A DNA stretch of 64,000 bases from Candidatus Latescibacterota bacterium (GTDB lineage Bacteria > Latescibacterota > UBA2968 > UBA8231): positions 3,584,001 through 3,648,000 of the forward strand of contig CBDFJF010000002.1 of assembly GCA_965248265.1 (NCBI GenBank), in the 5' to 3' direction. The notes below the pieces were generated by a model. It made no database searches. It was not told the origin of the DNA and saw only the letters and a program-made list of their open reading frames with translations. Below, piece by piece: positions 9,285-64,000 of this stretch (position 1 is the stretch's first letter; each line of letters starts with the position of its first letter). The position numbers and the translations under genes were made by a program.

Positions 9285-9299
9285 GGGGTAAGAAGGCTA

Positions 9300-12817: not shown

Positions 12818-13703
12818 TCACAAGGGCGTCGATGTTTTCTCGTCGGTGACGGCCTCATCGAGCTGGTCCTGGGTCAAGCCCTCGGCATCGAGAAGGTCGG
12901 CTCCCTTGAGATTCGTCCCCATCAACTCGGCGCCCTGGAGCTTAACGCCCTGCATGCGTGCACCCTCGAGGTTGGCGTCGGACAGATCCGCCCCTTTGAG
13001 GTCAGCGTTGTTCAAGCGTGCCCCCTGGAGTTGGGCTTCTTGCATCTCTGCCATGAACAAGTTCGCGCCTGCGAGGTTGGCGCGTTTGAGATTCGCCCGT
13101 TGCAGGTTCGCCTCACGCAGATCAGCCTCTCTCAGATCCGCCCCCTCCATCGCAGCTTCTTCGAAATCCGCCTGCTCTAGACTAGCACCGACAAGGCTGG
13201 CCCCGTCCATCTTGGAACGCTTGAGAATCGCTTTCTGTAGTGTTGCTTCCAGAAGGTCGATCCCCCGCAAGTCTGCCAGAAAGAAATCCACATTCTGCAA
13301 TTCGGCCTTTTGAAGATTCGCGTCCCTCAGGTCTGCGCCCCGCAAGAGCGCGCCCTGCAGGTATTTCTCACGCAGGTTGCACTTGCCCAGCTCTGCCCTC
13401 TTGCCTTCCTTCGACTTGCTGACGATCCATTCACGGTGATCTACCAGCGTCCTCTCTAACTCCTCGTCGGCGACCTCCCGGAGTGCCTTCTGCCCTGAAC
13501 TGGCCTGATGTTCGGGCGGGGCATCACCCTCCCTCCAGGCGGTAGCTGGTGCGGCAGCGGTCTTCCCTTCGTCAGCTGCTGATTTGGGAGCAACAGCCTT
13601 CTTCTTCGTTTTCTTCTTTTTCTTGCCGGGAGAGGATTCAGAATTCTTCACCGATGTCTTTTTGCCAAGAGCTTTTTTGATCTTGGATATCTTTTTTTTT
13701 GCA
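12818..13703 (-). CDS. Pentapeptide-repeat protein with Lys-rich N-terminus (start uncertain; ORF track gives 13651)
   Basis: A(D/N)Lxx repeats and GLTQDQLDEA..DEKT tail; frame stays open upstream as AKKKISKIKKALGKK. Confidence 0.85.
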
Positions 13704-14761: not shown

Positions 14762-14837
<76 letters not shown>

Positions 14838-32033: not shown

Positions 32034-32118
32034 GGGGGGATACCGAAGCGGTCAAACGGGGCAGACTGTAAATCTGCTGGCTCAGCCTTCGTAGGTTCGA
32101 ATCCTGCTCCCCCCACCA
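32034..32118 (+). tRNA. tRNA-Tyr (GUA)
   Basis: GGGGGGATACCGAAGCGGTCAAACGGGGCAGACT GTA AATCTGC, long variable arm, GTAGGTTCGAATCCTGCTCCCCCCACCA. Confidence 0.96.
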
Positions 32119-39324: not shown

Positions 39325-39431
39325 TGAAGCTGGGTCTTTTCTGTTTTGTTGAATGGATCGGGCGTCAGGTGTGCCGTATGGCTGTGGCTGACGCAATGAG
39401 GAAGCTGGTTCTGTTCGGCGGGAATAGGAGA

Positions 39432-39469: not shown

Positions 39470-41703
39470 TTAGGGCGATTCTCCAGGGCGCTCTGGAGGG
39501 TTGTCGGCCGATGGCGTTACACGCATCAACTTGGCCAGATTCGCTTGGGCCCTGTCGTCAGCGGGATCCAGCCGCAGAGCCTGCCGGGTCACGCGCAGAG
39601 CCGATTCGAAGTCTCCTTTGGCGGCGAAGGCCGACGCGAGATTGTTGTAAATCCGGATGCTTCCCGCTTCAAGCAAGAGGGCTTTTTCGTATGAAGTGAT
39701 TGCCTTCACGATGCGTCCGGCATTTCGGTATGCCGTTGCCAGGTTTTCATGCGCGTCCGCGTCGGTCGAATCACGCTGCACCACCTCCTCATATGCCACT
39801 GCAGCCTCGCTCCAGTTAAGAGACCTTAACTCACTCTCTGCCAATGCTTTCCATATAGTAACCTGCTGCGGAAAATCGCTCAAAACCCGGCGATAAGCAG
39901 CGGTTGTTCCCACACCTTCATCGACCAACTCGTGAAGTTTGAGATTGACCGCCGCTTCGGTGTAGGTTGGATCGATCTCGACGGCTCTCTGCAGAGCCAG
40001 GCGAGCTTCCTCTCGTCGACCGAGTTCGCCCAATAGCAGTCCCAGATTGTTGAATGACGGAGCGTAGCCGGAATCCAAGCTGGCGGCTAGCCGATAAGAC
40101 TTCTCGGCTGCCGACAGACGCTCCTGTTGTTGATAGGCCCTGCCAAGATTGACCCATGCCTCAAGGTTGTGGGAATCCAGTCGTACAGCGCTCTCCAATA
40201 GTGCTACCGCTTGACTATTGCGTCCCAGCCGTGAGTAGAGTCTTCCCAGGTTGTTGTAGCTGCCGGACAACCCCGGGCTCAACCGACGCGCCTGCTCAAA
40301 GGCCTGTTCCGCCCGCTGCAGCAGGCCAAGATCCTCGTAAACCAATCCCACATTGCTCCATGACTTGCCGTAGCGAGGATTGATCTCGATAGATCGCTCG
40401 AAGGCCTCACGCGCGGCGGTCGACTCACCGCGCTCATACAGAGCGAGGCCGAGATTGCTCTGTACACGGAACATCCCCGGGGCTTTGGTGACAGCATCCG
40501 TCCACAAGGCGTGCTCGTCTACCCAGACCGCATTCCGTGCATGGGTATGCGCTGCACAAGTCAACAGCAGCACCACAGCAAGCGCGGCCGAGACGGGACT
40601 CGGGATCCTTGCAGATGAGCGGACCGCTGTACTCCTCCTCTTCCCTATCACTGCGCCGACGAGGATGAGCACACCCACGAAAGGCAGGTACAAGCGGTGC
40701 TCGTTGACGAGCACATTCAAGGGGAAGATGAAGGTCAGCAGCAGGCCGGCGAAGAACCAGAGTGTACCTATGGTCACCCATGGCAACGAGCCCGAGGACC
40801 TGGGCAACGAACCCGAGGACCTGATCGTCAGACCAAGCACGGTCACCACCAGCAAGGCGCTGGCCAGCACGGTCCCATCGGTGAGACTGGTGGCCTCCGT
40901 GAAGGCATGCTCGACGCTGAGACCGACTGGAACGGCAATCAGCTTCAAGTAAAAGACGATCGCTTTTGTCTGAGTAAACAGCTGTACGTCGAGTGGACGT
41001 ACATCCTGTCCAAGAGATCGCGGCAGGAAACCGTCGATCGTGATGACGACCAAGTAGACTACCGTCATCACGGCATATGGCAACACCACAAGCATCACCC
41101 GTTTCAGGTCCCTACCCCGGACAAGCTCAATCACAAAAACCAGGGGCAGGAGAACGACGGCCGCTGATTTGCACAGCAGTGCGAGTGTGTACAGGATACA
41201 GGCGGTTCCCCGCGCGCTCTTGAATCGATGGAAGTAGAGGGCACCCAACACTCCCAGTACGTACAAGAGCTCCGAACGGCTGCTGATATAGTTGACCAGC
41301 TGGGAATTAATAGGGTGAAGGGCAAACGTGGCCCCGACAACCAAGGCTTGAAAGCTGGACAAACCCAGCTCCGGGCAAAGGCAAACACGATGACGGCACA
41401 CATCGCATGGACGAGCAGATTGACCAGACGATAGCCGATGACCTCGTAACCGCCCAGGGCATGATTGACCGCGTAGGTGGCTTGAAGCAGCGGACGGTAC
41501 ATGGCCATGGAGGCTTCGTTTGAAAAAGTGCTGGAATCGAGGAAGAACGAGGGAACTGTAGCCAGCTCTCGGATGTGGTGGTTATCGACGATGGAATGTG
41601 AATCGTCGTAGTGGAACGAATTGGAGAGAGAGCCAGCGTAGCAGATGAAGGTGACGACTACCAGAGCGGCTGCTCCCGTCCAGAACGAGTCGAATCTCCT
41701 CAT
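39470..41703 (-). CDS. TMTC-like GT-C glycosyltransferase + TPR, paralogue 1 (1-nt deletion near 41371)
   Basis: FHYDDSHSI, MYRPLL, then second frame HP...VNYISSRSE, PLNVLVNEHRLY, RNAVW, many TPRs; adding one G rejoins ..FARELGLSS.. Confidence 0.85.
40782..40823. repeat. 21-bp in-frame tandem duplication (RSSGSLP x2)
   Basis: ggcaacgagcccgaggacctg / ggcaacgaacccgaggacctg, one mismatch. Confidence 0.85.
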
Positions 41704-41716
41704 CGATCGGACCCTG

Positions 41717-43618
41717 TCATGGTGCATTCAACCGCTCGAGCTGTTCCTCGACCCGCGACAAGGCCGTACGCGCGGGTTGGTACCTCGGCGCTGACCGGAC
41801 GGCTCGCTGGAGATAGCTGTGTGCCTTCGTCAGATGCTGCCTGGCATCATCCTCGCCTTTCTCAGAAGCAGCCATCTGTGCATGCAGGACGGCCAGGTTC
41901 TTGAGAGTCTTGGCGTCGTCGCCCTTGAGAGCAACTGCCTGCTCGTAGGCTTGGCGTGCTCTCTCCATATCACCAAGGTCCTGAAAGGCGACGCCGAGAT
42001 TTCCGTACGCCTGATAGTGATAGGGCCTCAGTGATACTGCTCGTTCCAGAGAGCTGATACTACGGCGCAAGAGCAGCATCCGCTCTCCCCCTCTCCGAGC
42101 TCGGCTCTGCTCAAGATAGATGACACCCAAATTGACACGCGCGTCGACGTAGTCAGGATTGAGATCCGTGGCCTGGCGGAACATGGCCTCTGCATCCGCA
42201 AGTTTTCCGCGCGTCAACAGAATGCTGCCGAGGTTGTTGAGGGCTCTCAACGACAAAGCACGATCACTTTGAATCTCGATGACCCGCTCGTACGCCCCGG
42301 CAGCTTCACGCCAATGCTGCCTCGCGGTCAGCTCATCGGTTGCTTGCAGGGCGGCATCCTTATGCGCGTTACCCAGGTACAGGTGTCCGCGTGGCATCAA
42401 CGGCGCCTTGTCCACGACATCCCCCCACAGACTGAAATCATCTGCCCACGCACGATTGCGCTGGACGCAGATCGCTGACAGAAAGAGTATTCCTAGAATG
42501 GGAACCAGTCTCCGGTGCCGCATACAATACCTGGACAGTAAGGTCCCCAGTAGTAGACAGAACAGAGCCGTCGGCAGGTACAGCCGTCGCTCGTTCACCA
42601 AAACGTTCAGGGGCATCGCCATCACCGGCAGCATGATCAGAGCGGACCAACCGAGGCCCACCAGAGCGATCTTGAAGGTGCCCCGGTGGCGGATGAGCCA
42701 CAGCAACCACAAGCCACTCAGGATCAATACCAGGGATACTATGATGAGTGGACTCAGCTGCTTCTGAACGAAGAACTGGTGCTCGACATTGAGGCGAACG
42801 GGGAAGACCGTCAGGTAGAGGTAGTAGCCGATCGCCTTCGTCTGGGTCAGTAGCTGTGCTGAAAAGTCACGCACGGGTGCTCCCAGAGAACGGGTCAGAT
42901 AGTCGTTGTGGGTTACCACTGCGAAGTGAATGATCATCAGTATCCAGAAGGGCACCTGGCGTCGAAAGAGTTGCGAGGCGGCTCGAAGTCCATGCCCGGG
43001 GACACGCTGCGTTAAACAAATCCAATCGTGTAACAGCAAAACCAGCGGTGCGGTCACCAGCGTCATCTTGGTCAGCAGACCGAGCTCGAACGTGATCCAG
43101 GCACCGTAAGGATGCCGCTCGACGTCACGCCTGCTGGCACGGATGTACAGGGCGAGCGTCAACAAATAGAGCGCGGCTGCCAGACTCTCGCTCCGACTGC
43201 TTATGTAGTTTACCGGCTCGGTCGCCAGCGGGTGCGTGACGAAGAGCAGGCCAGCGATAAGAGCGGCGTCCCGACGCCGGGGGTACAGCAGCATCGTCAA
43301 CCAGGCCACAACGCAAGCATTCACGGCGTGGATGAGGATGTTGATCAGCCGATACCCCAGGACATCGTAATCCCCCAACGAATGATTCAGCGCATAGGAG
43401 ACCAGCAGCAGCGGCCGGAACATGCCTCTGTCGACGTCGGCTGAAAAGGTCCCGAGGTCGGTGAAGAACAAGGGCACATTTGCCAGGCTTCGAACGCTGG
43501 GGTTTTCCACGATGGAATGGATGTCGTCATAGTGAAATCCATTGCCGAGCGCATTCCAATAGATGGCCAGGCAGACCGTCACGACCGCGACATACAGGAG
43601 CAGATAGTCTCTCTTCAT
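41717..43618 (-). CDS. TMTC-like GT-C + TPR, paralogue 2
   Basis: FHYDDIHSI, MFRPLL, EPVNYISSRSE, PLNVLVNERRLY, RNRAW, TPRs; ATGA overlap. Confidence 0.88.
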   Translation of the reverse strand: MKRDYLLLYVAVVTVCLAIYWNALGNGFHYDDIHSIVENPSVRSLANVPLFFTDLGTFSADVDRGMFRPLLLVSYALNHSLGDYDVLGYRLINILIHAVNACVVAWLTMLLYPRRRDAALIAGLLFVTHPLATEPVNYISSRSESLAAALYLLTLALYIRASRRDVERHPYGAWITFELGLLTKMTLVTAPLVLLLHDWICLTQRVPGHGLRAASQLFRRQVPFWILMIIHFAVVTHNDYLTRSLGAPVRDFSAQLLTQTKAIGYYLYLTVFPVRLNVEHQFFVQKQLSPLIIVSLVLILSGLWLLWLIRHRGTFKIALVGLGWSALIMLPVMAMPLNVLVNERRLYLPTALFCLLLGTLLSRYCMRHRRLVPILGILFLSAICVQRNRAWADDFSLWGDVVDKAPLMPRGHLYLGNAHKDAALQATDELTARQHWREAAGAYERVIEIQSDRALSLRALNNLGSILLTRGKLADAEAMFRQATDLNPDYVDARVNLGVIYLEQSRARRGGERMLLLRRSISSLERAVSLRPYHYQAYGNLGVAFQDLGDMERARQAYEQAVALKGDDAKTLKNLAVLHAQMAASEKGEDDARQHLTKAHSYLQRAVRSAPRYQPARTALSRVEEQLERLNAP

Positions 43619-45665
43619 GAGCCTGATCTGGCCTGCAGCCGGCGGTAGCGGGAGATGGCGGCGGTACGGATATCCTCGTCGCTGCAATTGGTAATCAACC
43701 GCCGGTAAACCTGGGCAGCGGCCTCGAGATCCTTCGCCGTTTCCAACGCGTTGGCCAGTTGGAGGGCCCCGCTCCAATGGTTGGGATGGACTCGGACCAA
43801 TTCCTTGTTGACGGCCAAACTCTGCGCGTAGGCACCGGTCTCCCACAAGGTCGTGGTCAGACCCCAGAGAGCCTCAGGGCTGCGAGGGTCCACCATCAAT
43901 AACTGACGGCAAAGCTCGATGACCAACCCGTGCCGACCGTTTGCCTTCATCGAGCGGGTCATTGATGGCAGCTTGCCGTGGAGGCGAGTCAGATTGGCGC
44001 GTGCATCGGCGTTGGTGGGCTTTTGATCCAGGGCAGCCCGGTAGTAGAACGCAGCGCTGTCCGGCCTGCCGGATTCCTCGAATAAGGTCCCGAGGTTGTT
44101 GAGCGCCAGATCGAAATGTAGCTCGTCGAATCCACCAGTAGATAGTGGGTACGCGCTGAGTGCAGGTCACCGGCGTCCTGAAAGGTCCGCGCGGCATTGT
44201 AGCGCACGTCCGACCAGGCCGGGTTGGTCTCAAGCACATTCTGGTATATGGCCAGGGCCGTCTTCCACTGGCCCAGGTCACGGTGTGCACTCGCCAGGTT
44301 GTTGCTGGCTACGACATTGTCCGGATCCAATGCCAGCGCATCTTCGAAATGCACGATCGCCTGCCGGGGCCTGTCCTGTGCCCTGGCATAGTTCCCCAGG
44401 TAGACGTGAGGCTCTATCGCGGACGGGGATTGTCTCTTCGCGTTCGACCAGAGACTTCCCTCGTCGCTCCATACCGTGTTCTGCCGCACAACCAGCACCA
44501 TGAACAGCAGCCCGAGTACCGGTCCCGCCCAGAGTATCCCTCTGAGCGATTCAAACCGGCTCATTCCGAGTACCGCCAGCAACGCTCCAACCAGCGCGAG
44601 ATAGAGACGATGTTCGTTGACGAGCACGTTGAGCGGGACCACGAAGGTCGGCATCAGAACCACCCCGATCCAGGCCAGCCCGAAGCCGAGGAGCGCATGT
44701 TCGCTGCGGGTGTCGGCGCTGGTCCGCCTTCCTGCATACCACGCTATCACCACGAGCGTTCCGACACCGGCCAGAGCCAGCAGTACCGTTATATCCGCCA
44801 GGGATGACACGGTGAACGCGTGGTGAACGGACAGACGCGCCGGCATCACGACAAGCTTCAGATAGTACGGGAGGGCCTTGAGTTGGGTGCCGAGTTGTTC
44901 ACTCATCGAGCGCACCGGTTCCTCGACCAGGGCCGTGTTGACGAGTGACCGGATGTAGAGGAGGTAGGCGGTGGCCACGACGGCGTACGGCACGTACACC
45001 GACATTTGAGCGCGCAGCCGGCGACCGTCCAGGCGGTCAGTCAGCACGATCAGCAAAGGCAACACGATGCTGATTTCCTTTGAGCCCAGCGCCGCCGCGA
45101 AACAACCTACCGAGGCGATACGCGTCAGCAGCAGACGCCCGTCCGGTACCGATCTGTCCGGCTTTGAGCGCAGGTACAACCACAAGCTGACCATCATCAA
45201 GAAGCCAGCCATCAACTCGGAGCGGCTACTGATATAATTGACCGGCTCAGTGGCCAGTGGATGAACGGCGAACAGCATCCCTCCAAGCAGGGCCAGGCAA
45301 ACACTCACGCGCAGTTCGATGAACAGGAGCCAGACGGTAATACTCGCCAGTGCGTGCAGCAGAATGTTGATCAGATGATAGGACCAGGTCTCATACCCAC
45401 TCCAGGAGTGGTTCAGAGCGAAGGTGGCCAGTAGCAGAGGCCGGTACATCGCCTTCTCCTCATCCCTGGAGAAGTATTCGGGATGGGAGAAGAATTCGGG
45501 AATGCTCTCCAGGCTGCGAATGTGATCGTTCGTGACGATGGAGTGGCGATCGTCATACTGAAAGGCGTTGCCGATAGCGTTCGCATACATCACGGCGCAC
45601 ATCACCAACAAGAGCGCTATGGAAGCCAAGCGACTGCTGACGATGGTGGTGATCAGGGCTCTCAT
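43615..45665 (-). CDS. TMTC-like GT-C + TPR, paralogue 3 (1-nt deletion near 44118)
   Basis: FQYDDRHSI, MYRPLL, EPVNYISSRSE, PLNVLVNEHRLY; adding one C gives ..SYHFDLALNNLG.. and joins ORF 43615-43962. Confidence 0.85.
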
Positions 45666-47575
45666 CGCAATCGCCTCGAGAGAAATTGCAGACGCGCTGT
45701 CGCCTTCGCGTCATCCGGTGCGAGTCGGAGCGCGCGCTCGAAGGCGGCGCGTGCCTCCTGCCAGGCTTGAACACATCCGCTCGTATCTCCATTCGCCAGC
45801 CTGGCGCCGCCGACGGCGATCAGTACCTCCCCCAGGTTGCGTGGGTACAGGGCATCGTTCGGCGACAACTCGAGGGCGGCGCGATAGGATTCGGCGGCCT
45901 TCGAGAACTGCTTGGCGCCCGTATAGGCGTTGCCCAATTCGTTGAACACGTCATCCCCGGGTTGCAGCTCGGCCGCGCGTTCAAAGGCCTGCGCGGCGGC
46001 GGAGAAATCGGCTTTGTCGTACAGCAGCAAGCCCATATTGTAGTAGCCATCGGCGAAGTGCGGATGCAGGCGAAGCAATTGCTGGTAGGCTGTGATTGCC
46101 GATTCCCTGCGCCCGAGCTGTGAAAGCACCGTCGCCCTGCCGCTGAGTGCTTCCCTGTAGCTTGAATCAGAACCTAGGACGGTGTCGAACTCAACCATCG
46201 CCCTCTTCAGCACCGAGGAGTGAGTGGGGTCCTGCTGGTGTAAACTCAGGGCGTGCTCGAGGTACAGATTGGCCAGATTGGTGCGGGCAGCACGATGCGT
46301 CGACTCCAGCTTCAGCGCCCGATGAAAGGAGCGCTCGGCCCCGGCACGGTTTCCGGAAACCGCCTGGGCATTGCCCAGATGCACGTGGGGCCGCGCCATC
46401 AACGGGCTCTTGGCGACGGAGTCCTCCCACAGGGTCAATTCGCTTTCCCATACTGTATTGCGTGTTATGGTATGAGCCCCGAGGAGGACCACAAGGACGG
46501 GCCACAGGGCACTGTACCGCCCCTTGCCGATCCAGTGAGGCCACATCTTACCCACCAGCACTGCCAGTCCCGCAAGAGGCAGGTACAGCCGGTGCTCGTT
46601 TATTAGGACGTTCAGTGGCACAACCGTAGCCGGCAGCAATGCGATTAGCGCCCAGAAGAGCCAGAGGCGGGAATCCCCCTTCACGCGCAACCAGGCCAGC
46701 ACGACCACTGTACCTAACATCAGGGCACTGACGATGACGGTGCCGTCCAGTATGGACACCGACTCGGAAAACTGATGCTCAACATTGAGACCGACCGGCA
46801 CCAGCAACAGTTTGGTGTACAGGGTCAGCGCCTTGAGCTGAGTCCAACACTGCTCAGGCAACCCGCGTGGGGATTGGCTCACTGAAGTCGGCAGGAAACG
46901 GTTCCAGATCTGCAATGCAACGTACCCGGCTGACAGCAACCACAGCCAGATCGTGTTTGTCCTGCCTACGGGGTGCGGACCCTCGCGCCATACCCCCTGC
47001 ACCCATACCATGAATGGCAAGGTGATTACCATCTCTTTCGAAAGCAGTCCCAGTACGAAACAGATGGCAGCAGCGATCGAGGCCCGCGAACCGGCCGTGG
47101 CGAGCAAGCGGAAACTGGCCAGGTAGAAGCAGGCACCCAGCAACTCGGATCTGCTGCTGATATAGTTGACAGGCTCCGTCGCCACTGGATGCAGGGCGAA
47201 AAGGCAGGCCGCCCATTGCGCCCCCCTTGTAGTGCAACCGTTCTGGCGGGAGATACTCCACACCAGCAGTGAACACACAAAATGGATGATGGTATTGAGG
47301 ATGTGGTACCCGCTCACTCCATACTCGCCCAGGGCGTAGTTGACGGCGTAGCTCAACAACAGGACCGGTCGGTACATGGCCTTGTCGACGTCGCTGGAGA
47401 ACAGGGCCGGATCCGCGAAGAAGCTGGGAATGTTCGTCAGGCTGCGGATATGAGGGTTGGCGACGAGCGAATGAAAATCATCGTAATGGAAATTGCCGTT
47501 GAGGCTGTTCCCGTATGTGATCGCCACCACGACCCCGAGGAAGAGCGGGAAACGCCAACCGTGCAGCGCGCTCAC
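45662..47575 (-). CDS. TMTC-like GT-C + TPR, paralogue 4
   Basis: FHYDDFHSL, MYRPVL, EPVNYISSRSE, PLNVLINEHRLY, RNTVW, TPRs. Confidence 0.88.
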   Translation of the reverse strand: MSALHGWRFPLFLGVVVAITYGNSLNGNFHYDDFHSLVANPHIRSLTNIPSFFADPALFSSDVDKAMYRPVLLLSYAVNYALGEYGVSGYHILNTIIHFVCSLLVWSISRQNGCTTRGAQWAACLFALHPVATEPVNYISSRSELLGACFYLASFRLLATAGSRASIAAAICFVLGLLSKEMVITLPFMVWVQGVWREGPHPVGRTNTIWLWLLSAGYVALQIWNRFLPTSVSQSPRGLPEQCWTQLKALTLYTKLLLVPVGLNVEHQFSESVSILDGTVIVSALMLGTVVVLAWLRVKGDSRLWLFWALIALLPATVVPLNVLINEHRLYLPLAGLAVLVGKMWPHWIGKGRYSALWPVLVVLLGAHTITRNTVWESELTLWEDSVAKSPLMARPHVHLGNAQAVSGNRAGAERSFHRALKLESTHRAARTNLANLYLEHALSLHQQDPTHSSVLKRAMVEFDTVLGSDSSYREALSGRATVLSQLGRRESAITAYQQLLRLHPHFADGYYNMGLLLYDKADFSAAAQAFERAAELQPGDDVFNELGNAYTGAKQFSKAAESYRAALELSPNDALYPRNLGEVLIAVGGARLANGDTSGCVQAWQEARAAFERALRLAPDDAKATARLQFLSRRLR

Positions 47576-55375: not shown

Positions 55376-56559
55376 AGCGCCTGTATGCGGCGTGCGAGGG
55401 AAAGAAACTGCGGAGCCGCGGCGTAGTGATCCCTGCGTTCGATTATCCGGTTGTGAAAGGCCTTCCTCCGGTCCCGGTCCACCATCAGAACCATTTTTTC
55501 GAGCAGATCCTCCACGGAAGCGGACTTCGCCACCACCCCGAACTCCTCACGCTCTATCAACCTGCTGGCGGCCCCATCCGGCAGGGCAGCGACGACGGGT
55601 CGTGCATGGGCTATGTACTCGTAGAGCTTGCCTGGTACGGCGTAAGAGAACCTGGAGGAGGCCAGTGAAAGAAAGCCGACATCGGCCTGCTGCAGGGCAG
55701 CGGAAACCTGTCCAGAGCTGAGCAAGCCGCCGTATTCAACACCTCCCCGCTGTAGGTGTTGGCCCAGCGTCTGTTTCAAATAGAAGTTTTCTGGACCAAA
55801 CACGGTAACGCGAACCCTGTTTCGCAACTCGGGATGTCGTTTGCGCAGCTCCCCCGTCGCCGCGCATAACAGTTCCAACCCCTGAGCCGGCGAGATGGCC
55901 CCCGCGTAGACGAAGTGCGTGTCCTCGTGATCGCGAAAGGACAGTGCCTTCGCATCAACCTCATCCCAGTAGCCGTTGGCGGTGACCTGCAGCTTCTCTG
56001 CCGGTAACCCGTAGGTCGCTGACAACGATTGGCCGATCTCCTCGGTGGCCACGGAAACCAGGGCGGCACGGTCGAGGGCTCGCCTTTCCCAGAAGGCTGC
56101 GAGTGGTTTCTGCAACGTGGATTTGAGCCCGAGGTGATCATCGCGGTAATCGAGGACCAGGCGCGCGCCCGTCCGCCGGGAGGCCATGTACCCGGCGATG
56201 TGATCGGTCAAGGGTGGGTACACACTGACGATGGTGTCTTCGCTTGCTGCCGCCACCTTCCCCACACGAGCGGCCGCAGACGACACCCAGTTTACATGCG
56301 GGCAAGGCACCACGCCCGCGCGGTGCAGGAGCTCTCCTCCCAAATGCCAGGGGAAAGCACGTACCCTGTGCACGGGCAAATCCGCATCGTCTCCCAGCAG
56401 GTCCGTATCATCGACGAACGCCCCAAGAGCTCGTGACACGTTACCATGGGTTACAACCTCAACATCCAGACCTCCATCAGCCAACAACCGGGCAAACTTG
56501 TAGCGCCGGTAGGTCCGCGCCAGTGGCGGATAATGACAGGTAATGAAGCACGTCTTCAT
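55372..56559 (-). CDS. GT4-family glycosyltransferase
   Basis: ITCHYPP, VLDYRD, FVYAG, VPGKLYEY.A..RPV. Confidence 0.85.
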   Translation of the reverse strand: MKTCFITCHYPPLARTYRRYKFARLLADGGLDVEVVTHGNVSRALGAFVDDTDLLGDDADLPVHRVRAFPWHLGGELLHRAGVVPCPHVNWVSSAAARVGKVAAASEDTIVSVYPPLTDHIAGYMASRRTGARLVLDYRDDHLGLKSTLQKPLAAFWERRALDRAALVSVATEEIGQSLSATYGLPAEKLQVTANGYWDEVDAKALSFRDHEDTHFVYAGAISPAQGLELLCAATGELRKRHPELRNRVRVTVFGPENFYLKQTLGQHLQRGGVEYGGLLSSGQVSAALQQADVGFLSLASSRFSYAVPGKLYEYIAHARPVVAALPDGAASRLIEREEFGVVAKSASVEDLLEKMVLMVDRDRRKAFHNRIIERRDHYAAAPQFLSLARRIQAL

Positions 56560-58394
56560 GGTACCTTCACGCCTGATCGTGACAAGCGCTCAATAGCCTT
56601 TGCAGCCCGGTCGCCGAATCCGGCGTACTCCTCGTGGCCCTGCAGCAAGTCACGGGCCCGAGCAAATCCGTGCACGGCTCCATCGGTGTCACCGAGGCGC
56701 TCTCTGATACTCGCCAGGTTGAACCACGCCCCACCTAACTCCGGATCGCGTTCGTCCTTCCAGTACAGAGAATCACGGACAGCTTGTTCGTACTGCTTCG
56801 CCGCCTCGTCGTATCGCTGGGACGCTTCAAACGCCTGGCCGAGATTGTTGCGCGCCAGGACGAAATGAGGGTCGAGTTCGAGAGCGCGTTCGAAGAAGCT
56901 TACCGCCTCGGTGAGGTCACCGGAGCGCTGTCTGAGATTACCCAGATTGTAATAGACTCCTGGGAAGCTCGAACTGTGCTTGAGCGCTTTGCGGTAGGCA
57001 TCCTCGGCTCCCGTCATGTCACCTTGGCTCTTGTAAAGGTTGCCGACGGCATTCCAGGCCTCGGCATTGTCAGGTTTCAAGCGCAACCCCTGGTTGAGCT
57101 CTCGCAGAGCCTCCTCCATCCTTCCAGCACGATCGTAGGCCAAGCCAAGATTCATTCGCGCCCGATGCATTGCCGGAGCCTTCGCCACCGCGTCCTCCCA
57201 CAGGCTCACGTCATCCGCCCACACCTGGTTGCGTTGAAGATTCAGCAGGCAAAACACGGCAACGACGGCAATGCCCATGGCGTGTACTCGCCTGCTCGCA
57301 GGCGCAATCCGTGTGGCCCATCGCTGCCACAACCAGCATGCGCCCAACAGCAAGCCTGCACTCGCCAGGTACATGCGACGTTCACTGACCAGAATGTTGA
57401 GCGGCATGACGGACGCCGGTGCCAGGGTGGCGATGAACCAAGCCCAACAGAAAAACAGCACCCTGCGGCAAGCAAGGACAGTGACGATGGAGATGGAAAC
57501 AAGGAAAGCAAACGCCAGCAGCACTTCCGGCGAGAATGGGCTCTTCGCCACCGAAAACTGGTGCTCGATGCTGCCGTCCACGGGAACCATCGTCAGCTTG
57601 AGGTAGTAGACGAAGCCTTTGAGCTGAGTCCAGGCTTGTGTCACGAACGAGCGTGGCCGGCCCTCGAGTGAACTACCCAAAAAGCGGTTGGCCGAAATCA
57701 GTGCGAGATAGAGGCCGGCTGCCAACCACAGGTACCAGTACCGCCACATCCCGGAGGCAGCCTGCCGCACACCATACCTGCAAAAGTCAAGCAAGGCAAC
57801 GACGAACGGCAGGGTTATGGCGATCGACTTGGCCAATAGGCCCAGCACGTAGGCCGTGGTTGTGATTGCGGCATGAGGACGTGACCTGGCGTTCCCGATG
57901 AGCGTGGCGAATCCAACCAGAAAACAGGTGGCGGCCAACAATCCCGACCGGCTACTGATATAATGAATGAGCTCCGAGTGCATGGGATGGCACAGGAACA
58001 CGAAGCCAGCACCGACCGCGATGGTAAGAGAGGCGAAGAGGCGGCGGGCAATCAGACACACCGCAAAACTGGCGATTACGTGCAGGAAGAGGTTGATGAT
58101 CCGAAATCCCAATACTTGCTGCCCTGAAACAGAGTAGTTGAGGGCATACGTGGTCAGCAGGACAGGTCTGTACATAAAACCGGAAGGATGGGACGAGAAC
58201 GTGCCCGGATCGACGAAGAAGCTGGGGACGTTGGCCAGCGACCGAATGTGAGGGTTGTACTGGACAGAATGGTGATCGTCATAGTGAAATGGATCATTGA
58301 GCGCCTGGAAGTATAGCACGGCGGCGAGCGCGCTGAGTGCAATGAATACGAGGATCGGACGGTCGACTTCCCCATTGCGCGTGCGGTCAGTCAT
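56556..58394 (-). CDS. TMTC-like GT-C + TPR, paralogue 8
   Basis: FHYDDHHSV, MYRPVL, ELIHYISSRSG, PLNILVSERRMY, RNQVW, TPRs. Confidence 0.88.
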   Translation of the reverse strand: MTDRTRNGEVDRPILVFIALSALAAVLYFQALNDPFHYDDHHSVQYNPHIRSLANVPSFFVDPGTFSSHPSGFMYRPVLLTTYALNYSVSGQQVLGFRIINLFLHVIASFAVCLIARRLFASLTIAVGAGFVFLCHPMHSELIHYISSRSGLLAATCFLVGFATLIGNARSRPHAAITTTAYVLGLLAKSIAITLPFVVALLDFCRYGVRQAASGMWRYWYLWLAAGLYLALISANRFLGSSLEGRPRSFVTQAWTQLKGFVYYLKLTMVPVDGSIEHQFSVAKSPFSPEVLLAFAFLVSISIVTVLACRRVLFFCWAWFIATLAPASVMPLNILVSERRMYLASAGLLLGACWLWQRWATRIAPASRRVHAMGIAVVAVFCLLNLQRNQVWADDVSLWEDAVAKAPAMHRARMNLGLAYDRAGRMEEALRELNQGLRLKPDNAEAWNAVGNLYKSQGDMTGAEDAYRKALKHSSSFPGVYYNLGNLRQRSGDLTEAVSFFERALELDPHFVLARNNLGQAFEASQRYDEAAKQYEQAVRDSLYWKDERDPELGGAWFNLASIRERLGDTDGAVHGFARARDLLQGHEEYAGFGDRAAKAIERLSRSGVKVP

Positions 58395-60201
58395 TGCTGT
58401 TCCCCAATGCATTCAGGGAATCAGCCTTGCGCGCCGCTGTGCCGGCGTATATTGCGCCGCTAAAGCCTGTCGCTATTTCGCGATAGGCATCCACCGCCCC
58501 GCTGACGTTGCCTTCACGCTCATACGCGATCCCCAGGGCCATCAGAGTCTCAGCAGTGCGTTCAACCTCAAGCGCACCTTGTAGACAGGTGATAGCGAAA
58601 TCGACCTGGCCATTCAATAACGCCAACAGCCCCTGATTGTGCAGGGACTTCGCATCCTCCCCTAACTTCGGCTGGAAGGCAAGGAGACCCTCCAAAGCCT
58701 CCCGCGCCTTGACGTACGTCGAGTCAAACCGAAGGGCGGTCTGATAGGCCTGGATGGCCTCTTGCGACCGTCCCATCGTCAACAGGGTGGAACCGATGTT
58801 GTTGTAAGTGACGACCCGGTCGAGACCGCTGATTAGGGAGGGATTCACCTGCAGGGCGGTGTAATAGGATTGCAGAGCCTCTGCGTACTTACCGCTCTTC
58901 TTCAGACCATCACCCAGATAGATGTGAGGCCGCGGCATGCCCGATCCCTTCTTGACCGCGTCCGCCCAGAGGGTCTGGCTGCTCTGCCAGATGCTTACCC
59001 GCACCCTGTCGTGCAGGGTGAACGAGACGGCCAACAGGATGACGATCGACCCAACCAGAAGAGTGTGCTCCCGGCTGTGCCGTGCGACCAAGAGAGCCGC
59101 GACCATCGCCAGCGCGATCGAGGGCAGGTACAGTCTGTGCTCGTTGACGAGCACGTTCAGCGGTATGATCAGCGTCGGCAGCAGAGTCACGAATGGCCAC
59201 AATATCCAGAACACACCGGAGGAATCCCCGGTCCTAACCACACCTATCCAGAGCAGAGTGCCGATCGATAGCAGCAGCAAGACTCCCCCTATCACCGCAT
59301 TCTCCGTGAAGGCGTGGCTGAGATCGAACTGATGCTCCACGGAAAGCGGGTACGGTATCATCAGCAGTTTCAGGTAGTATGTCAGAGCCTTGATCTGAGT
59401 CCACAGCTGTGTCCCCATTCCACGCACCGGTGCGTCGACGACAGCCTGATGCAGCATCTGGCGCACTAGCAAAAGATACACCAGTGAGACAACCCAGTAG
59501 GGCCACTGAACACGCCACAGGTGGCTGATCCGTGTGCGGAGATCCGCCACCGAGCGCATCAGCTCGTACAGGAAAAGGGCCGCAGGCAAGGTGATGCCGA
59601 CAGCCTTGGACAGCAGCGCCGCTGCGTAGGCGGCGACGGAGATCATCATCCACAAACTCCGAGGCGAATTCGCCACGCTCGTGCGCAGATACGCGTGGAA
59701 CGCGATCAAAAAAAAGACCGCGCACATCGACTCCGAGCGGCTGCTGACATAGGCGACTGCTTCGGCGTTGACAGGATGCAGACCGAAGACGATTCCGGCC
59801 GCCACTGCGCCCCAATTACTATGCGTAACGAACAGCGCCAGTAGCGCAACCAGACAGGTGGCCGCCGCGTGCAAGACGAGATTGGTCCAATGAAACCCGC
59901 CGCCATCCTGTCCATGAAGCTGGTAGTCGACGGCATGAGAGAGCAACACCAAAGGCCGGTACATGGCACTGCGTGGATCTTCGCTGAACATCTCGGGGTG
60001 CGAGAAATAAGCGGGCACATTGCTCAAAGAGCGGATATGGGGGTTCTCAACGATTGAGTGGAAATCATCGTATTGAAACGGGACATCTGAGACGCCAGAG
60101 TACACAAGAAGAACCACCGCGGTGAGAGACAAACAAACGAGAAACCGCCCGCCGTGGGAGTCTAGCACCAGCCCTGATCCGTAGCTCTTGAATGACTGCA
60201 T
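58387..60201 (-). CDS. TMTC-like GT-C + TPR, paralogue 9
   Basis: FQYDDFHSI, MYRPLV, EAVAYVSSRSE, PLNVLVNEHRLY, TPRs. Confidence 0.88.
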   Translation of the reverse strand: MQSFKSYGSGLVLDSHGGRFLVCLSLTAVVLLVYSGVSDVPFQYDDFHSIVENPHIRSLSNVPAYFSHPEMFSEDPRSAMYRPLVLLSHAVDYQLHGQDGGGFHWTNLVLHAAATCLVALLALFVTHSNWGAVAAGIVFGLHPVNAEAVAYVSSRSESMCAVFFLIAFHAYLRTSVANSPRSLWMMISVAAYAAALLSKAVGITLPAALFLYELMRSVADLRTRISHLWRVQWPYWVVSLVYLLLVRQMLHQAVVDAPVRGMGTQLWTQIKALTYYLKLLMIPYPLSVEHQFDLSHAFTENAVIGGVLLLLSIGTLLWIGVVRTGDSSGVFWILWPFVTLLPTLIIPLNVLVNEHRLYLPSIALAMVAALLVARHSREHTLLVGSIVILLAVSFTLHDRVRVSIWQSSQTLWADAVKKGSGMPRPHIYLGDGLKKSGKYAEALQSYYTALQVNPSLISGLDRVVTYNNIGSTLLTMGRSQEAIQAYQTALRFDSTYVKAREALEGLLAFQPKLGEDAKSLHNQGLLALLNGQVDFAITCLQGALEVERTAETLMALGIAYEREGNVSGAVDAYREIATGFSGAIYAGTAARKADSLNALGNSND

Positions 60202-60211
60202 GGCGAGGGCA

Positions 60212-61188
60212 TCAAGTCCTGCTCGAGTGCATCAGTTCGAGTATCAGGTCTCGCTCTCTCTCCTCCATCTTTTCTCCGCTGAATTCTTCGATGCGCAATC
60301 TGCAACGCGCTCCGAGTTGCTCGACGAGAGATGGCTCCCCGATAAGCTTCTGGAAAGCGACTCGGTAGCTGTCAGATGATCCGTCCACGACCCATGCGCA
60401 TCCACCACTTCGGGTTCGGCATCCCATCTCGGTCGGTTAATCACGACTGGAAGCCCCAAAGCCATCGCTTCCATCACGGGCATACACACTCCGGGTTGCG
60501 ATATATTGATGGCGAAGACATGGTGGCCGACGAATACACCCGGTAGTTCGTGGTTGGGTACGGAATCGATGAAGGTCACTCGGCCAGCGACTCCAAAGCG
60601 GGCGGCCACACGCTCTAGCTGATCTCGCATGGGACCGGTACCCACCAGAGTCAACTCGGCGTCAATTTCTGCGAGCGCCTCTATCAGAGGACGCTGGTCC
60701 TTACCCGCAAACTGCCTGCCGACATTGATAATCTTCAATCGCTCTCCGGTCGCCATACGCGGCTTCAGATCGACGAACTTCTCCAGGAAAATCTGATTGT
60801 AGATGACTCGCACCTTGCAGCCGTATCCTGATTTTCTAACCAGTCGAGCGGCTGCTTCGTACTTCGGCACAATTCGATCGGCGTTGCGGTACGTGTACTT
60901 CTCCCAACCCAGCAACTTGAGTGCGATTTGATAAACAGTGATCTTGGCATAGCCCTTGCCATAGGGCATGACTGACCCCACCGGATGAATACATAGTTCA
61001 GCTCTACCGGCCACTCGCTGGACCTTCTTGGGCTCGGTGTCATCATCGGCAAGAACGAGGACATGAACGCGTTTGAACATCCCGCAAGGGTTCCAGTAGC
61101 GATCCTTGATCTCGCCTTTTTCGTAGGCCGTCCGCAGGTTGCCATCTGCCACGACGCCGTAGATGGCCACTACTGACCTCTCATTCAT
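60212..61188 (-). CDS. GT4-family glycosyltransferase (1-nt deletion near 60402)
   Basis: INVGRQ..GK, LVGTGP, PVMEAMALGLPVV; the C-terminus continues in ORF 60212-60427. Confidence 0.8.
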
Positions 61189-61197
61189 CGAGCCCTC

Positions 61198-62171
61198 TCA
61201 ATCAACCTGTCTCTCGTTCATGGCGAGCATCCGAAAGGCGCTGCCATAGTCATGCAGACTCATCGTCAGCATCAACGTCTGCATACAGAAGCGCCGCGGC
61301 CATGTCCACCGGCGCGACAGATTTTCATCAGGGGTCAGCGCATGGAGAAAGCGAGCCAGTCGGCCCTTTCCAGTATTCGGCCACTCGCCGTCGGGCAGTC
61401 GCGACCGGTAGGAATCCAGCATGTCGCGGAGGTACATCGGGAAGGAATTCACGGGGACCAGGCCTCCTCTTTGTGCCACGTCAATAGTCTCGACAGCGTG
61501 AATGAATCTCTGTAAAGGACCCCGTACATGTCGTACAACTTGGCCTCGAACGAAATCGCCACTCCCTCTCGAGTGGAGGGTAACTCTGATCCTCGCGCGA
61601 ACAACCGTCGAGCCCAGGCGATGCGCCTCTCGACATCATCTCCGGCCAGACGGTCGAGCAGATCGCACTGCAGGTTGTAGACGAAATGACCGTAGGAGTT
61701 GTAGATGAACGTGCACAGGTAACCGCCCGGTTTCAGGGCTCGCGACAGATTGCGAAAGGCGTGACGGGTGTCGGGCGTATGGTGAATACAACCCAGGCTT
61801 GACACGTAGTCGAACTCCCGATCCGGCATGGCATCGTCATCCAACACCGACTCAACTCGGAATTCGACATTGTCGATTCCGGCATCCATGGCAGCCTGGC
61901 GTGCGTACTCGATCGAACCTTCGCTGGAGTCCACTCCGACGACTCTTTCCGCACCGAGTTGCGCCAGGAACAGCGTCTCTTCCCCTGTCCCACAACCGAC
62001 ATCCAACACCGATTTGCCTCGAAAGAACTCATCTACATCGAGTCCCAGGCGGCCGTAAACGTAGCGGCGATGGCGCACGTACGTGGCCATGTCGTCCGGA
62101 TCCAGGCGAGGATAGCGCAAACGCGTGTACATCTGCCGCGTACGATCCTCGCGGATATTCCGCTCGCTCAT
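61198..62171 (-). CDS. Class I SAM-dependent methyltransferase (1-nt deletion near 61463)
   Basis: VLDVGCGTGE, FDYVSSLGCIHHTPD, LKPGG; adding one G gives ..KEEGLVPVNSFP.. and joins ORF 61198-61479. Confidence 0.82.
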
Positions 62172-62172
62172 T

Positions 62173-63312
62173 TTAATCCTCCCCACGACCGGCCACAATT
62201 TCCTTCAGACTCCGGCGTATCGAATTCATGTTCTTCGCACCCAGCGAAGACAGTCGTGCCAGACCACCCCACCAACCAGCGTCGAACACTTCCGTCCGCA
62301 GCACTCTGCGCAACCGGCGAATCTCATGCGCACGCACCTGGGCAGCCCAAAAGCGGTCATAGCGATCGGCATGCAGTTGGCGGGAATACTCATCAAGGCG
62401 ATCCAGTACGTTCTGCTTCGACGTCCCACGCACCTCCTGCACGATACAATCATCCGCCATCGTCACTGGAATGACGTGCTCGATGCGTGCCTTGCCAGAA
62501 CTCACTTCAAAGGTAAGCAACAACGATTCACGAGATTCCTCGTCGAATGCCAGTTGCTGGTCCTCGTAATCGGGAAACAGAAAGTTGCCCAGACTGTAGC
62601 AGATCACACCGTCATTCCACTCCTCGATGCCCTGAATGGCATGGGGATGATGACCGATAATGATCCGCGCCCCCCAGTCCACGATATCGTGGGCAAGATC
62701 GAGGTGCGAGGGTGGCGGAAAGTGGATGTACTCTTTTCCCCAATGCAGGGATACGATGATACAATCCACTCGCTCGGCCAGCTCCTTCACATCCTGTTCA
62801 ATCATCACGCTCTCCAGCGGAGCCACGCCGGCATTCGTCGCCGATGCCGGTAAGGCCCCGACCCACGGATGAGTGGAGGCGTAGGACAGAAACCCGAGAT
62901 CGAGTCCGTTTCGCTGGATCACGACCGCCTCGCGGGCGCTGTTGATATCTTCGCCGGCTCCGACTGCTGCTATCTCCAGGCGGCTGAGCTCTGATTGTGC
63001 CAGTGCGAGCCCCTCGGCTCCAAAGTCGAGACTGTGGTTGTTGGCCTGAGATACGATCTGGATGCCCATCTGCTCCAGCAACTTCAACTGGCCGGCAGAG
63101 GCGCTGACCAGATACTCAGCAGGATTTGGCGGTACGCCATCCGTGCCGGAGCAAGTGCAATCCAGGTTGGCAATCGCGAGATCGCTCTGGCGCAGATGTT
63201 CGAGAACTTCTCTCGAACCGGACACGAAGCCATCGCCATGGCTCTCGAGACTCCCACCCAGGGCCAGGTCGCCGACGGCGCACAAACGAACCGATGTTGT
63301 GGTTTCGTCCAT
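62173..63312 (-). CDS. CapA/PgsA-family metallophosphatase-fold protein
   Basis: AVGD, ANLD, ANNHSLDFG, SLHWGKEY, IIGHHPH, YSLGNF. Confidence 0.9.
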   Translation of the reverse strand: MDETTTSVRLCAVGDLALGGSLESHGDGFVSGSREVLEHLRQSDLAIANLDCTCSGTDGVPPNPAEYLVSASAGQLKLLEQMGIQIVSQANNHSLDFGAEGLALAQSELSRLEIAAVGAGEDINSAREAVVIQRNGLDLGFLSYASTHPWVGALPASATNAGVAPLESVMIEQDVKELAERVDCIIVSLHWGKEYIHFPPPSHLDLAHDIVDWGARIIIGHHPHAIQGIEEWNDGVICYSLGNFLFPDYEDQQLAFDEESRESLLLTFEVSSGKARIEHVIPVTMADDCIVQEVRGTSKQNVLDRLDEYSRQLHADRYDRFWAAQVRAHEIRRLRRVLRTEVFDAGWWGGLARLSSLGAKNMNSIRRSLKEIVAGRGED

Positions 63313-64000
63313 TAGTCCATGAAGCGCCTGAACCACAACTCGGTGGTCACCAGTGACTGAATAACGGTGAATAGCGGAGCACCTCGATCGACAAAGCCGA
63401 TCAGGCGATCGACGCCTTTGCGGTCGATCAAACCGCGACTCGAAGTGCGTGGATCTCGCAACACGCCTTCATAGACGGCTCGGTACTGTGCATCCTTTCT
63501 GAAACGCCGGTTGAGGTCACCGTGATGCCCGCGGTCAAGCCGCCCACCGCTGATCTTGAACAGGGAGTACTGTCCCAGGGTCCGCAGAGCCAGTTTCTCT
63601 GAGAGCTGGTCCCTCAAGCGCTTTCCCTTTCGAAGAGGGCGGTCGGTCTTCGCCCAAGGAACCGATGCCGCCTCGGGGTAGCGCTGCTCGATCAGGGCAC
63701 GCAGAAAAGCGGCCTCTCCCTTGTACCGTGGAGGCAGGCGCAGGCAGAAGTCGACGAGGTCGTAGTCGAGCCCCGGATAGGCGTACTCGACGAACTGACG
63801 CTGCACGTTCGGCAGAGCGGCCGAGTATCGGTTGCTGCGGTTCTTCAATGAGAAGCGGTAGATGAAGCTGCTGATGTCGTCGTCAGGGGCCAGGTGCTGC
63901 ATTCCGGCCTCAATGCTGGCGAGATTGGCCTCTTCGTACTCTTGATAGAACTCCGGCAGAAACGCCGACTTGATGAAGAACGGTCGGGCCCGGCGCCAAA
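63312..64000 (-). CDS. Asparagine-synthase-like amidotransferase, C-terminal part (runs off the window)
   Basis: YPGLDYDLVDFCLRLP..YK, VPWAKT, TTELWFRRF. Confidence 0.7.
   Translation of the reverse strand, partial: WRRARPFFIKSAFLPEFYQEYEEANLASIEAGMQHLAPDDDISSFIYRFSLKNRSNRYSAALPNVQRQFVEYAYPGLDYDLVDFCLRLPPRYKGEAAFLRALIEQRYPEAASVPWAKTDRPLRKGKRLRDQLSEKLALRTLGQYSLFKISGGRLDRGHHGDLNRRFRKDAQYRAVYEGVLRDPRTSSRGLIDRKGVDRLIGFVDRGAPLFTVIQSLVTTELWFRRFMD

Follow-up and report, generated by a model that had tools for sequence, protein, structure and literature searches.

The 64,000-nucleotide (nt) stretch of DNA analysed here, called the window in what follows, belongs to a Candidatus Latescibacterota bacterium (contig CBDFJF010000002.1). 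Its minus strand carries, between positions 39470 and 60201, nine paralogous genes (T1 to T9), each encoding a predicted membrane core of 11 helices followed by a tail of tetratricopeptide repeats (TPRs). These genes belong to a longer array, which also holds a tenth gene of the glycosyltransferase C (GT-C) type, two GT4-type glycosyltransferase (GT) genes and several others, and which runs off the window at base 64000 (Table 1). All long open reading frames (ORFs) from 35.4 kb to the window end at 64 kb are on the minus strand, and the G+C content across the array stretch is even (0.56 to 0.61).

Pfam recognises TPR repeats in all nine paralogues, which measure 558 to 709 amino acids (aa) as plain ORFs. 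The count of nine diverged proteins made in an earlier sequence-only reading of this DNA thus holds, and so does its statement that the tails vary in length and sequence: they range from 192 to about 340 aa and are 26 to 41% identical between paralogues. The genes it had listed as interleaved with them (the tenth GT-C, two GT4-type genes, a methyltransferase, CapA and an Asn-synthase-like gene) were all recovered, the last one weakly (E 1e-4). For that gene, whose 5' end lies beyond the window, an NCBIfam search gave no match. The CapA-like protein has a weak NCBIfam match to the MslH epimerase, with 71 bits against a cut-off of 700. The methyltransferase ATG at 62171, 1 nt past the CapA stop, is preceded by a GGGGAGG site, and the small ORF that follows the methyltransferase gene matched no family in a Pfam search. 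As a plain ORF the second GT4-type gene spans 60244-61188; only its C-terminal GT1 domain is recognised by Pfam, and the match ends early, at profile position 123 of 172. The tenth GT-C ends in a soluble domain of about 200 aa and has the motif GDE after its first transmembrane (TM) helix; its relatives are named 'glycosyltransferase family 39 protein' or 'phospholipid carrier-dependent glycosyltransferase'.

Table 1. Features of the window; the array comes first, in its direction of reading, followed by the genes and RNAs beyond it
Feature	Coordinates	Strand	Evidence or remark
Asn-synthase-like gene, C-terminal part	63312..64000	-	Pfam Asn_synthase E 1.1e-4, 22.4 bits (cut-off 21), weak
PGA_cap (CapA-like) protein	62173..63312	-	Pfam PGA_cap E 2.1e-59
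S-adenosylmethionine (SAM)-dependent methyltransferase	61449..62171	-	Methyltransf_31/25/11, E 1e-22 to 1e-24
Unannotated 84-aa ORF	61198..61452	-	Fills the methyltransferase-GT gap (only large gap in the locus); GTG start
Second GT4-type glycosyltransferase, frameshifted	60212..61188	-	Glycos_transf_1, Glyco_trans_1_4, E 4e-14
T9, GT-C-like core and TPR tail (192 aa)	58387..60201	-	Orthologue P0125, 65%
T8, GT-C-like core and TPR tail	56556..58394	-	Orthologue P0126, 68%, begins at 58394
GT4 glycosyltransferase, cytoplasmic, both Rossmann domains	55372..56559	-	Glyco_trans_4_4 E 1.5e-14, Glycos_transf_1 E 2.9e-10
T7, GT-C-like core (1-397) and periplasmic TPR (398-638); modelled paralogue	53459..55375	-	Orthologues 91, 79, 70%
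Tenth GT-C, PMT_2/GT39-like, 580 aa, without TPR	51720..53462	-	PMT_2 39.5 bits (cut-off 26.1), PMT 31.1 (22.7)
T6, GT-C-like core and TPR tail	49753..51723	-	Orthologue P0128, 62%
T5, GT-C-like core and TPR tail, frameshifted	47572..49760	-	Orthologue P0122, 82%
T4, GT-C-like core and TPR tail	45662..47575	-	Orthologue P0123, 71%
T3, GT-C-like core and TPR tail, frameshifted	43615..45665	-	Orthologue P0129, 65%
T2, GT-C-like core and TPR tail	41717..43618	-	Orthologue P0124, 79%
T1, GT-C-like core and longest TPR tail, frameshifted	39470..41703	-	Orthologue P0256, 65%
lepA	37522-39396	-	
Wza-like exporter with SLBB domains	33739-35397	-	Below curated cut-offs (PEP-CTERM/XrtA variants)
Wzz/GNVR chain-length protein	32559-33728	-	Below curated cut-offs (PEP-CTERM/XrtA variants)
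tRNA-Tyr(gta)	32034-32118	+	Rfam/tRNA scans
tRNA-Lys(ttt)	14762-14837	-	Rfam/tRNA scans
Pentapeptide-repeat protein	12818-13651	-	E 3e-45
Cytochrome c oxidase cluster: COX2, COX1, UbiA-type haem O synthase, two COX3-like, COX4_pro	4913-10615	+	
649-aa protein (two Usp and three PCP_red), NUBPL/ParA-type P-loop protein, second PCP_red protein	257-3746	+	

Frameshifts and gene junctions

In this assembly, T1, T3 and T5 each bear a single frameshift, near 41375, 44118 and 48022, respectively. T1 is split into ORFs 41131-41727 and 39470-41401, the first of which, lying upstream, carries the N-terminal motifs FHYDDSHS and MYRP. In T3 and T5 the TPR tail continues in a different frame as far as the start codon of the gene that follows. 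Intact orthologues were aligned with the window by tblastn. That of T3 (P0129, 686 aa) matches in frame -3 over residues 1-519 and in frame -2 over residues 520-682, that of T5 (P0122, 729 aa) in the same two frames over residues 1-580 and 580-728, and that of T1 (P0256, 727 aa) in two consecutive frames, whereas each of the six other orthologues tested matches in a single frame. The second GT4-type gene changes frame near 60395, and the remainder of its C-terminus is read in the other frame, as far as a stop that leaves 10 nt to the T9 ATG. Past each shift the frames resume cleanly, with no further stops. These four frameshifts had been missed in the sequence-only reading; they are either consensus errors or recent real lesions. 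Phase variation at these sites was considered and rejected, none of them lying in a long homopolymer or repeat.

Read as plain ORFs, four of the junctions show gaps: 250 nt between T5 and T4, 142 to 370 nt between T3 and T2, 260 nt between the methyltransferase and the GT gene, and 42 nt between the latter and T9. Once the frameshifts are read through and the 84-aa ORF is included, these gaps become GTGA, ATGA, GTGA plus 9 nt, and 10 nt, respectively, the T2 ATG at 43618 overlapping the read-through stop of T3. From the Asn-synthase-like gene onwards, the first five junctions are then TAATG, a 1-nt gap, GTGA, a 9-nt gap and a 10-nt gap; the next five, starting with T9-T8, are an 8-nt overlap, ATGA, TTGA, GTGA and GTGA; and the last five, ending with T2-T1, are an 8-nt overlap, GTGA, ATGA, ATGA and a 13-nt gap. 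Between T1 and lepA, which comes next, lie 73 to 145 nt. Overlaps and short gaps at 15 junctions form the pattern of translational coupling, and we conclude that the array is co-directional and translationally coupled, in agreement with the co-expression proposed earlier. The tight junctions described in the same proposal stand in so far as overlaps of 1 to 8 nt or gaps of at most 13 nt are found at most of them; at four, they appear only after frameshift read-through and inclusion of the 84-aa ORF. Consensus scans for promoters and terminators returned fewer sites than they did in shuffled sequence, with no site at a junction, and carry no information for this organism. Rfam and tRNA scans gave no match within the array.

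Predicted fold, membrane side and related enzymes

In the alignment of the nine paralogues, every copy carries the four motifs F(H/Q)(Y/F)DDxHS, M(Y/F)RP, Y(I/V)S(S/G)RS and PL(N/H)(V/I)..E(H/R)R.Y, as the sequence-only reading had stated, the first two being found on the separate upstream ORF in the case of T1. Hydropathy counts by the Kyte-Doolittle method were too threshold-dependent to be used (5 to 10 segments per paralogue), and the helices were taken from an AlphaFold2 (AF2) model of T7. This model has 11 membrane helices, with the TPR domain beginning at residue 398. Lysine and arginine cluster at the N-terminus and in short cytoplasmic loops, a positive-inside pattern from which the N-terminus is cytoplasmic. 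The TPR domain, behind 11 helices, is accordingly predicted to be periplasmic.

Across 60 family members, 23 residues are invariant. On the predicted topology, 17 of them lie in periplasmic loops and none in cytoplasmic loops; five more lie within the first five residues, at the periplasmic ends, of TM4 and TM10, and one in the middle of TM2. The acidic pair D41 and D42, invariant in 60 of 60, is placed 12 residues after TM1 in periplasmic loop 1, where the sequence-only reading had expected it. M76-Y-R78-P79, K193 and E350/R352 are likewise invariant, at positions matching motifs of the animal TMTC proteins (see below). All nine paralogues retain every invariant residue, DD included.

The AF2 model of whole T7, built from 44 aligned relatives, has a pLDDT of 92.5 and a pTM of 0.90. 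Foldseek comparison of this full-length model with the Protein Data Bank (PDB) gave only TPR proteins (designed CTPRs, the TPR domain of OGT, SPINDLY), after which a model of the core alone was built (residues 1-410, 60 aligned relatives; pLDDT 89.4, pTM 0.91). With the core, 46 of the 47 matches listed were GT-C enzymes or GT-C-like proteins, with probabilities of about 1.0 and TM-scores of 0.36 to 0.56; the other, at probability 0.12, was an amino-acid transporter. ArnT (5f15) came first, with E 6.8e-4, followed by STT3, apo ArnT, PglB, AglB and Pmt4; further matches listed were AftB, DPY19, EmbB, ALG3 and PimE, as well as four GPI transamidase subunit U structures and one WaaL, which we take to be GT-C-like. 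No TMTC entry was among the PDB matches listed for the core. Structure prediction, made on T7, supports for the nine cores the GT-C fold that had been put forward from the sequence. ArnT (GT83; 5f15, 5ezm) and PMT (GT39; 9i5k, 6p25), the best structural matches of the modelled core, have no TPR tail according to the descriptions available, PMT having a MIR domain instead. The tenth GT-C lies above the Pfam thresholds for PMT_2 and PMT, whereas the nine TPR paralogues lie below them.

The nine proteins belong to one very large bacterial family with the architecture of two known kinds of enzyme, the TMTC1-4 proteins of animals (CAZy family GT105) and the bacterial enzyme TfpW. In the available text of Eisenhaber et al. 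(2021, PMC7801869), human TMTCs are described as having 11 TM helices and a luminal TPR domain, with ArnT as the best template. Their motifs are a strictly conserved DD in loop EL1, SHKSYRP in the same loop, LLFAVHP at TM3, an Asp/Lys pair in EL2/EL3 and the arginine of AERV at the start of TM10 (PMC7801869). All human TMTCs match Pfam DUF1736, in the TM7-TM8 loop, with E below 1e-30, and homologues are stated to exist 'even among prokaryotes' (PMC7801869). As far as this description goes, the window proteins share with TMTCs the 11 TM helices, the cytoplasmic N-terminus, the non-cytoplasmic C-terminal TPR domain, the occurrence as a set of paralogues, and ArnT as the best structural template.

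Compared by motif and position rather than by alignment, the motifs given in that text correspond one to one (DD and xYRP in EL1, Lys after TM5, E-R before TM10). TMTC SHKSYRP corresponds to AMYRP in the window and AERV to NE(H/R)RLY, while the LF.VHP pattern of TMTCs at TM3 is matched by LF..HP in the window family. In the TM7-TM8 loop, a DW motif is described for TMTCs, whereas the window family has PVR..QL.TQ.KA..YY and S/VEHQF. TMTCs are encoded by four dispersed genes, unlike the nine linked copies in one operon found here; the window proteins are bacterial and periplasmic, and their carrier is presumably undecaprenyl rather than dolichyl. On motif and position, therefore, the TMTC-like architecture and first-loop acidic motif claimed for the array are matched. 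Strict TMTC membership was not borne out: a Pfam search of eight isolated cores at E up to 10, in which the HMMER filters drop most matches above E of about 0.1, gave no DUF1736 match in any of the eight. Judged on their sequences, the nine proteins share the TMTC plan, while membership of the TMTC family is not established.

By architecture, the closest characterised bacterial analogue is TfpW of Pseudomonas aeruginosa. In the part of its description available (10.1101/2020.04.19.049825), it is a protein of 646 aa whose N-terminus is cytoplasmic and which has 11 predicted TM helices as well as a large TPR domain in the periplasm; it is a pilin O-D-arabinofuranosyl transferase with an essential DDX in periplasmic loop 1. 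The best templates were ArnT in the case of the core and OGT in that of the TPR domain. This plan, likened by description and not by sequence, is that of the window paralogues, and the full-length T7 model likewise matches the TPR domain of OGT. As described there, TfpW is a single gene beside the acceptor gene pilA, with donor-synthesis genes near, whereas the array has no pilin, acceptor or donor genes in the window. Full-text literature searches gave no account of a bacterial array of TMTC-like enzymes, nor of any characterised family member but TfpW; an equivalent locus already characterised, which had been named as a possible refutation, was not found.

Age of the paralogues and occurrence in relatives

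Every paralogue has its own orthologue among the proteins fetched, at 62 to 91% identity, whereas the cores of different paralogues are 36 to 46% identical over about 370 residues. A maximum-likelihood tree of 63 cores (quick search, LG+G4), rooted on four distant homologues from genome loci, placed no two window copies as sisters; each pairs with its own orthologue, with an SH-aLRT support of 100. Most window copies lie in starred clades with further members, some of which come from metagenome-assembled genomes (MAGs) that bear the name Latescibacterota or Handelsmanbacteria. Support is poor for the deeper branches that connect the nine subfamilies. We conclude from the core sequences that the nine duplications are ancient and that the paralogues have been maintained, which settles the choice between ancient and recent duplication left to phylogeny by the earlier reading.

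The tails were compared in the same way. Mean identity among the six paralogues with intact tails is 40% for cores and 32% for tails, while in orthologue pairs the cores are 65 to 82% and the tails 55 to 88% identical. Being kept between orthologues and diverged between paralogues, the tails are not drifting linkers, and their constancy within each line is what paralogue-specific recognition predicts. This supports, without proving it, the proposal that each TPR tail may select a different acceptor. A row of nine old copies, each with its own conserved tail, suggests a division of labour like that of the animal TMTCs.

The array is apparently present in close relatives. In P0121, a protein of 923 aa, a T4-like part (the C-terminal 490 residues) is joined in window order to a T3-like part (the first 340 residues), and a second protein (P0191, 646 aa) is a fusion of similar structure. 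In some relatives, orthologues of different array members report a longest contig of the same size, equal sizes being no proof of co-location: 8718 bp for the orthologues of T7 (P0001) and of the tenth GT-C (P0381), 10621 bp for another such pair (P0006 and P0384), and 7694 bp for a T7-like, a T5-like and a tenth-GT-C-like protein (P0047, P0085 and P0388). Thirteen LepA relatives report contigs of the same size as T7-like matches, down to 10003 and 12961 bp, which suggests that the linkage of lepA to the array is conserved across the lineage. Among named LepA relatives, the nearest are from MAGs labelled Gemmatimonadota (78%) and Latescibacterota (77%), and others without such a label reach 93%. 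Both fused proteins result from read-through, in which one paralogue's tail is joined to the core of the paralogue that follows, and gene callers elsewhere also face tight or broken junctions in such arrays.

The family as a whole is much wider. Among 1.84 billion proteins, the core profile retrieved 115,986 cluster representatives at E <=1e-3 and 34,797 at E <=1e-30. The 120 T7 homologues listed, where named, are mostly called 'tetratricopeptide repeat protein', as the sequence-only reading had said of bacterial homologues; one is called 'TadD', five are called 'protein O-mannosyl-transferase' (JGI), and four have a precomputed PMT_2 domain. Neighbours in the ESM Atlas also include PMT_2-bearing clusters. 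A profile search of genome contigs gave distant relatives only, at no more than 34% identity, in 29 loci. A core match was present at 28 of these loci, and at none of the 28 did the available flanks contain a second copy, against nine copies in the window, so arrays are not general to the family.

At 16 loci of distant single-copy homologues, 109 neighbouring ORFs were scanned. A small GT2 gene (238 to 292 aa) lies within 4.5 kb of the GT-C/TPR gene at six of them (L001:774-1517, L005:3222-3944, L010:11860-12708, L003:14132-15007, L027:13582-14460, L015:15821-16537). These are candidate polyprenyl-phosphate sugar synthases, and their position agrees with the common arrangement in which a GT-C enzyme is paired with a lipid-sugar synthase, as the available text of PMC11127046 presents it. 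Collagen triple-helix repeat proteins adjoin three of the 16 loci (L005:1913-3247, L018:10771-12204, L021:6501-8339), one of them with a BclA C-terminal domain and one with CBM96; such collagen-like neighbours are possible protein acceptors of the family. Carbamoyltransferases are neighbours at two of the 16 loci, and a polysaccharide deacetylase with a GT2 at two. The GT2 and collagen neighbours at these distant loci do not bear directly on the window array.

Possible roles of the array

The reading that we consider probable is that of a coupled array of ten GT-C enzymes, nine of them ancient paralogues, which would transfer lipid-linked sugars in the periplasm, their TPR tails directing the choice of acceptor. 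Each enzyme would take a polyprenyl-phosphate-linked sugar at the periplasmic face. The periplasmic loops, with DD, MYRP, HP..E, the lysine after TM5 and E-R-x-Y before TM10, would bind the donor phosphate and the acceptor, and the paralogue-specific tail would select a different acceptor, which may be a secreted or envelope protein or a step of a surface glycan. The tenth enzyme, PMT_2/GT39-like, would act without a TPR domain. What the analysis shows is the anatomy, the predicted fold, the membrane side of the conserved residues, how old the duplications are and that each tail is conserved within its own paralogue line; catalysis, the type of donor and the identity of the acceptors are well motivated and wholly inferred.

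Several results weigh against this reading. Three paralogues and one GT4-type gene are frameshifted and, should the lesions prove real, some members of the bank are not produced intact in this organism. The Foldseek E-values are modest, with a single listed match at or below 1e-3, and the root-mean-square deviations are 9 to 15 Å; modest E-values and TM-scores are usual between GT-C families. In the Pfam search of eight isolated cores, the lone sub-threshold match was PMT in T6 (E 0.0017, 18.4 bits against 22.7). An NCBIfam search with the nine proteins gave TPR models alone, all under their cut-offs, a profile search of PDB sequences with the core gave no match at E up to 10, and hhalign comparison of the core family with the neighbouring PMT_2 family gave probabilities of 0.2% (A2) and 3% (A4), neither significant. 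Synteny in relatives is read from same-size contigs and one fused ORF. Among the scanned ORFs of the 64-kb window there is no GT2 (Glycos_transf_2), GtrA or MATE flippase gene; with neither a GT2 synthase nor a flippase in 64 kb, the donor pathway is not visible. Nor does the window contain a pilin or an evident repeat-rich secreted protein, and no candidate acceptor stands out.

GT-C enzymes of this type normally use polyprenyl-phosphate sugars made by a GT2 synthase, according to the part of PMC11127046 available. The GT4, methyltransferase and amidotransferase genes of the locus had been cast as builders of the donor, a proposal for which we found no support beyond co-transcription, with no GT2 in the window. 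We regard the upstream GT4-type, methyltransferase, CapA-like and AsnB-like genes as co-transcribed partners with no role assigned.

A more specific version of the favoured reading, possible and in our view doubtful, makes the array a bacterial counterpart of the TMTCs: nine protein O-glycosyltransferases, each TPR tail reading its own domain or site on envelope proteins, in distinct orthologous lines kept across related uncultured lineages close to Gemmatimonadota and Latescibacterota. In animals, the TMTCs are protein O-mannosyltransferases of cadherins, and each paralogue has its own sites on the cadherin domains. Were this version true, bacteria would have acquired protein O-glycosylation that is domain-specific and shared out among paralogues, the more than 100,000 'TPR protein' clusters would represent a major unrecognised class of bacterial protein glycosyltransferases, and collagen-like proteins would be one acceptor class of the single-copy family members.

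The rival that fares best, which we judge rather unlikely, is glycan tailoring: the substrate would be an already polymerised exopolysaccharide, capsule or lipopolysaccharide, to which the ten GT-Cs would attach side-chain sugars in the periplasm, in the manner of the three-component Gtr-type and GT136 systems. The TPR tails would serve for binding this polymer or for docking on the export machinery. TPR domains docking in polysaccharide secretion systems offer a comparison. Genes for a Wza-like and a Wzz/GNVR protein do lie 4 to 7 kb downstream of the array on the same strand, but lepA, hemW and thrB stand between them and the array, and both export proteins fall under curated cut-offs. The GT4-type genes have weak NCBIfam matches to glycosyltransferases of exopolysaccharide and PEP-CTERM systems; the window nevertheless contains no Wzx, Wzy, GT2 or initiating transferase.

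Periplasmic GT-Cs acting on finished glycans are well documented, and multi-GT-C loci are noted, in the accessible portion of PMC11127046. The systems described there resemble the array in having a periplasmic GT-C, a lipid-phosphate sugar, an extra acceptor-binding periplasmic domain and several GT-Cs in one locus (PMC11127046). They differ, as described, in the synthase and flippase beside the GT-C and in a CBM as accessory domain, where the window has neither synthase nor flippase and has TPRs instead. The neighbours of the distant homologues are divided between the two kinds of acceptor: the two loci with carbamoyltransferases and the two with a polysaccharide deacetylase and a GT2 favour glycans, while the three that adjoin collagen-repeat proteins offer would-be protein acceptors. 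Against tailoring, finally, TMTCs and TfpW, the characterised enzymes of exactly this architecture, act on proteins in the accounts available.

A decaying array, in which the paralogues would be relics or pseudogenes, or their cores non-catalytic, membrane-anchored scaffolds for the TPRs, is improbable. It draws on the density of frameshifts, four in the 24.5 kb of the locus, whereas none was detected in the other 39 kb of the window among full-length domain matches or in 18 leftover ORFs, a check that was not exhaustive (two of the 18 had matches, to Cpn10 and COX4_pro, and are separate genes). All nine paralogues keep every invariant residue, however, and each has an intact orthologue at 62 to 91% identity with a conserved tail; the clean resumption of frames is better explained by lesions of very recent date, or by errors in the consensus of a 4.14-Mb contig that appears to be metagenome-derived, than by long decay. 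A tandem array produced by mis-joining of similar genes, which had been named as a possible refutation, can practically be ruled out, because each paralogue has an orthologue of its own and the adjacency recurs elsewhere, the paralogues are far too diverged in protein (36 to 46% identity) to mislead an assembler, the G+C content is even, and no evidence points to mis-joining.

The array offers nine natural variants of one enzyme, with tails conserved in each line, and hence a comparative system for what a TPR domain reads. To our knowledge, GT-C enzymes with TPRs have been studied in two cases only, the animal TMTCs and Pseudomonas TfpW, and we know of neither in which the way the TPR domain picks its substrate is established. 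With proteins as acceptors, the array would point to a large unannotated capacity for protein glycosylation in bacteria; with glycans, it would stand out as a tailoring locus of unusual richness. In either case the annotation 'TPR protein' is uninformative for this family and could be improved; curated libraries do not recognise the family behind the clusters found with the core profile.

Downstream of T1, lepA is followed by hemW and thrB and then by the Wza-like and Wzz-like genes. In the remainder of the window, the two tRNA genes of Table 1 are the only RNA families found by the Rfam and tRNA scans. The cytochrome c oxidase cluster lies in a stretch of lower G+C content (0.50 to 0.53, against 0.56 to 0.61 in the rest of the window). 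Next to the gene for the pentapeptide-repeat protein is a short gene of the ROK family, matched over no more than the first 161 of 294 profile positions. The combination of Usp and PCP_red domains at 257-3746 is unusual.

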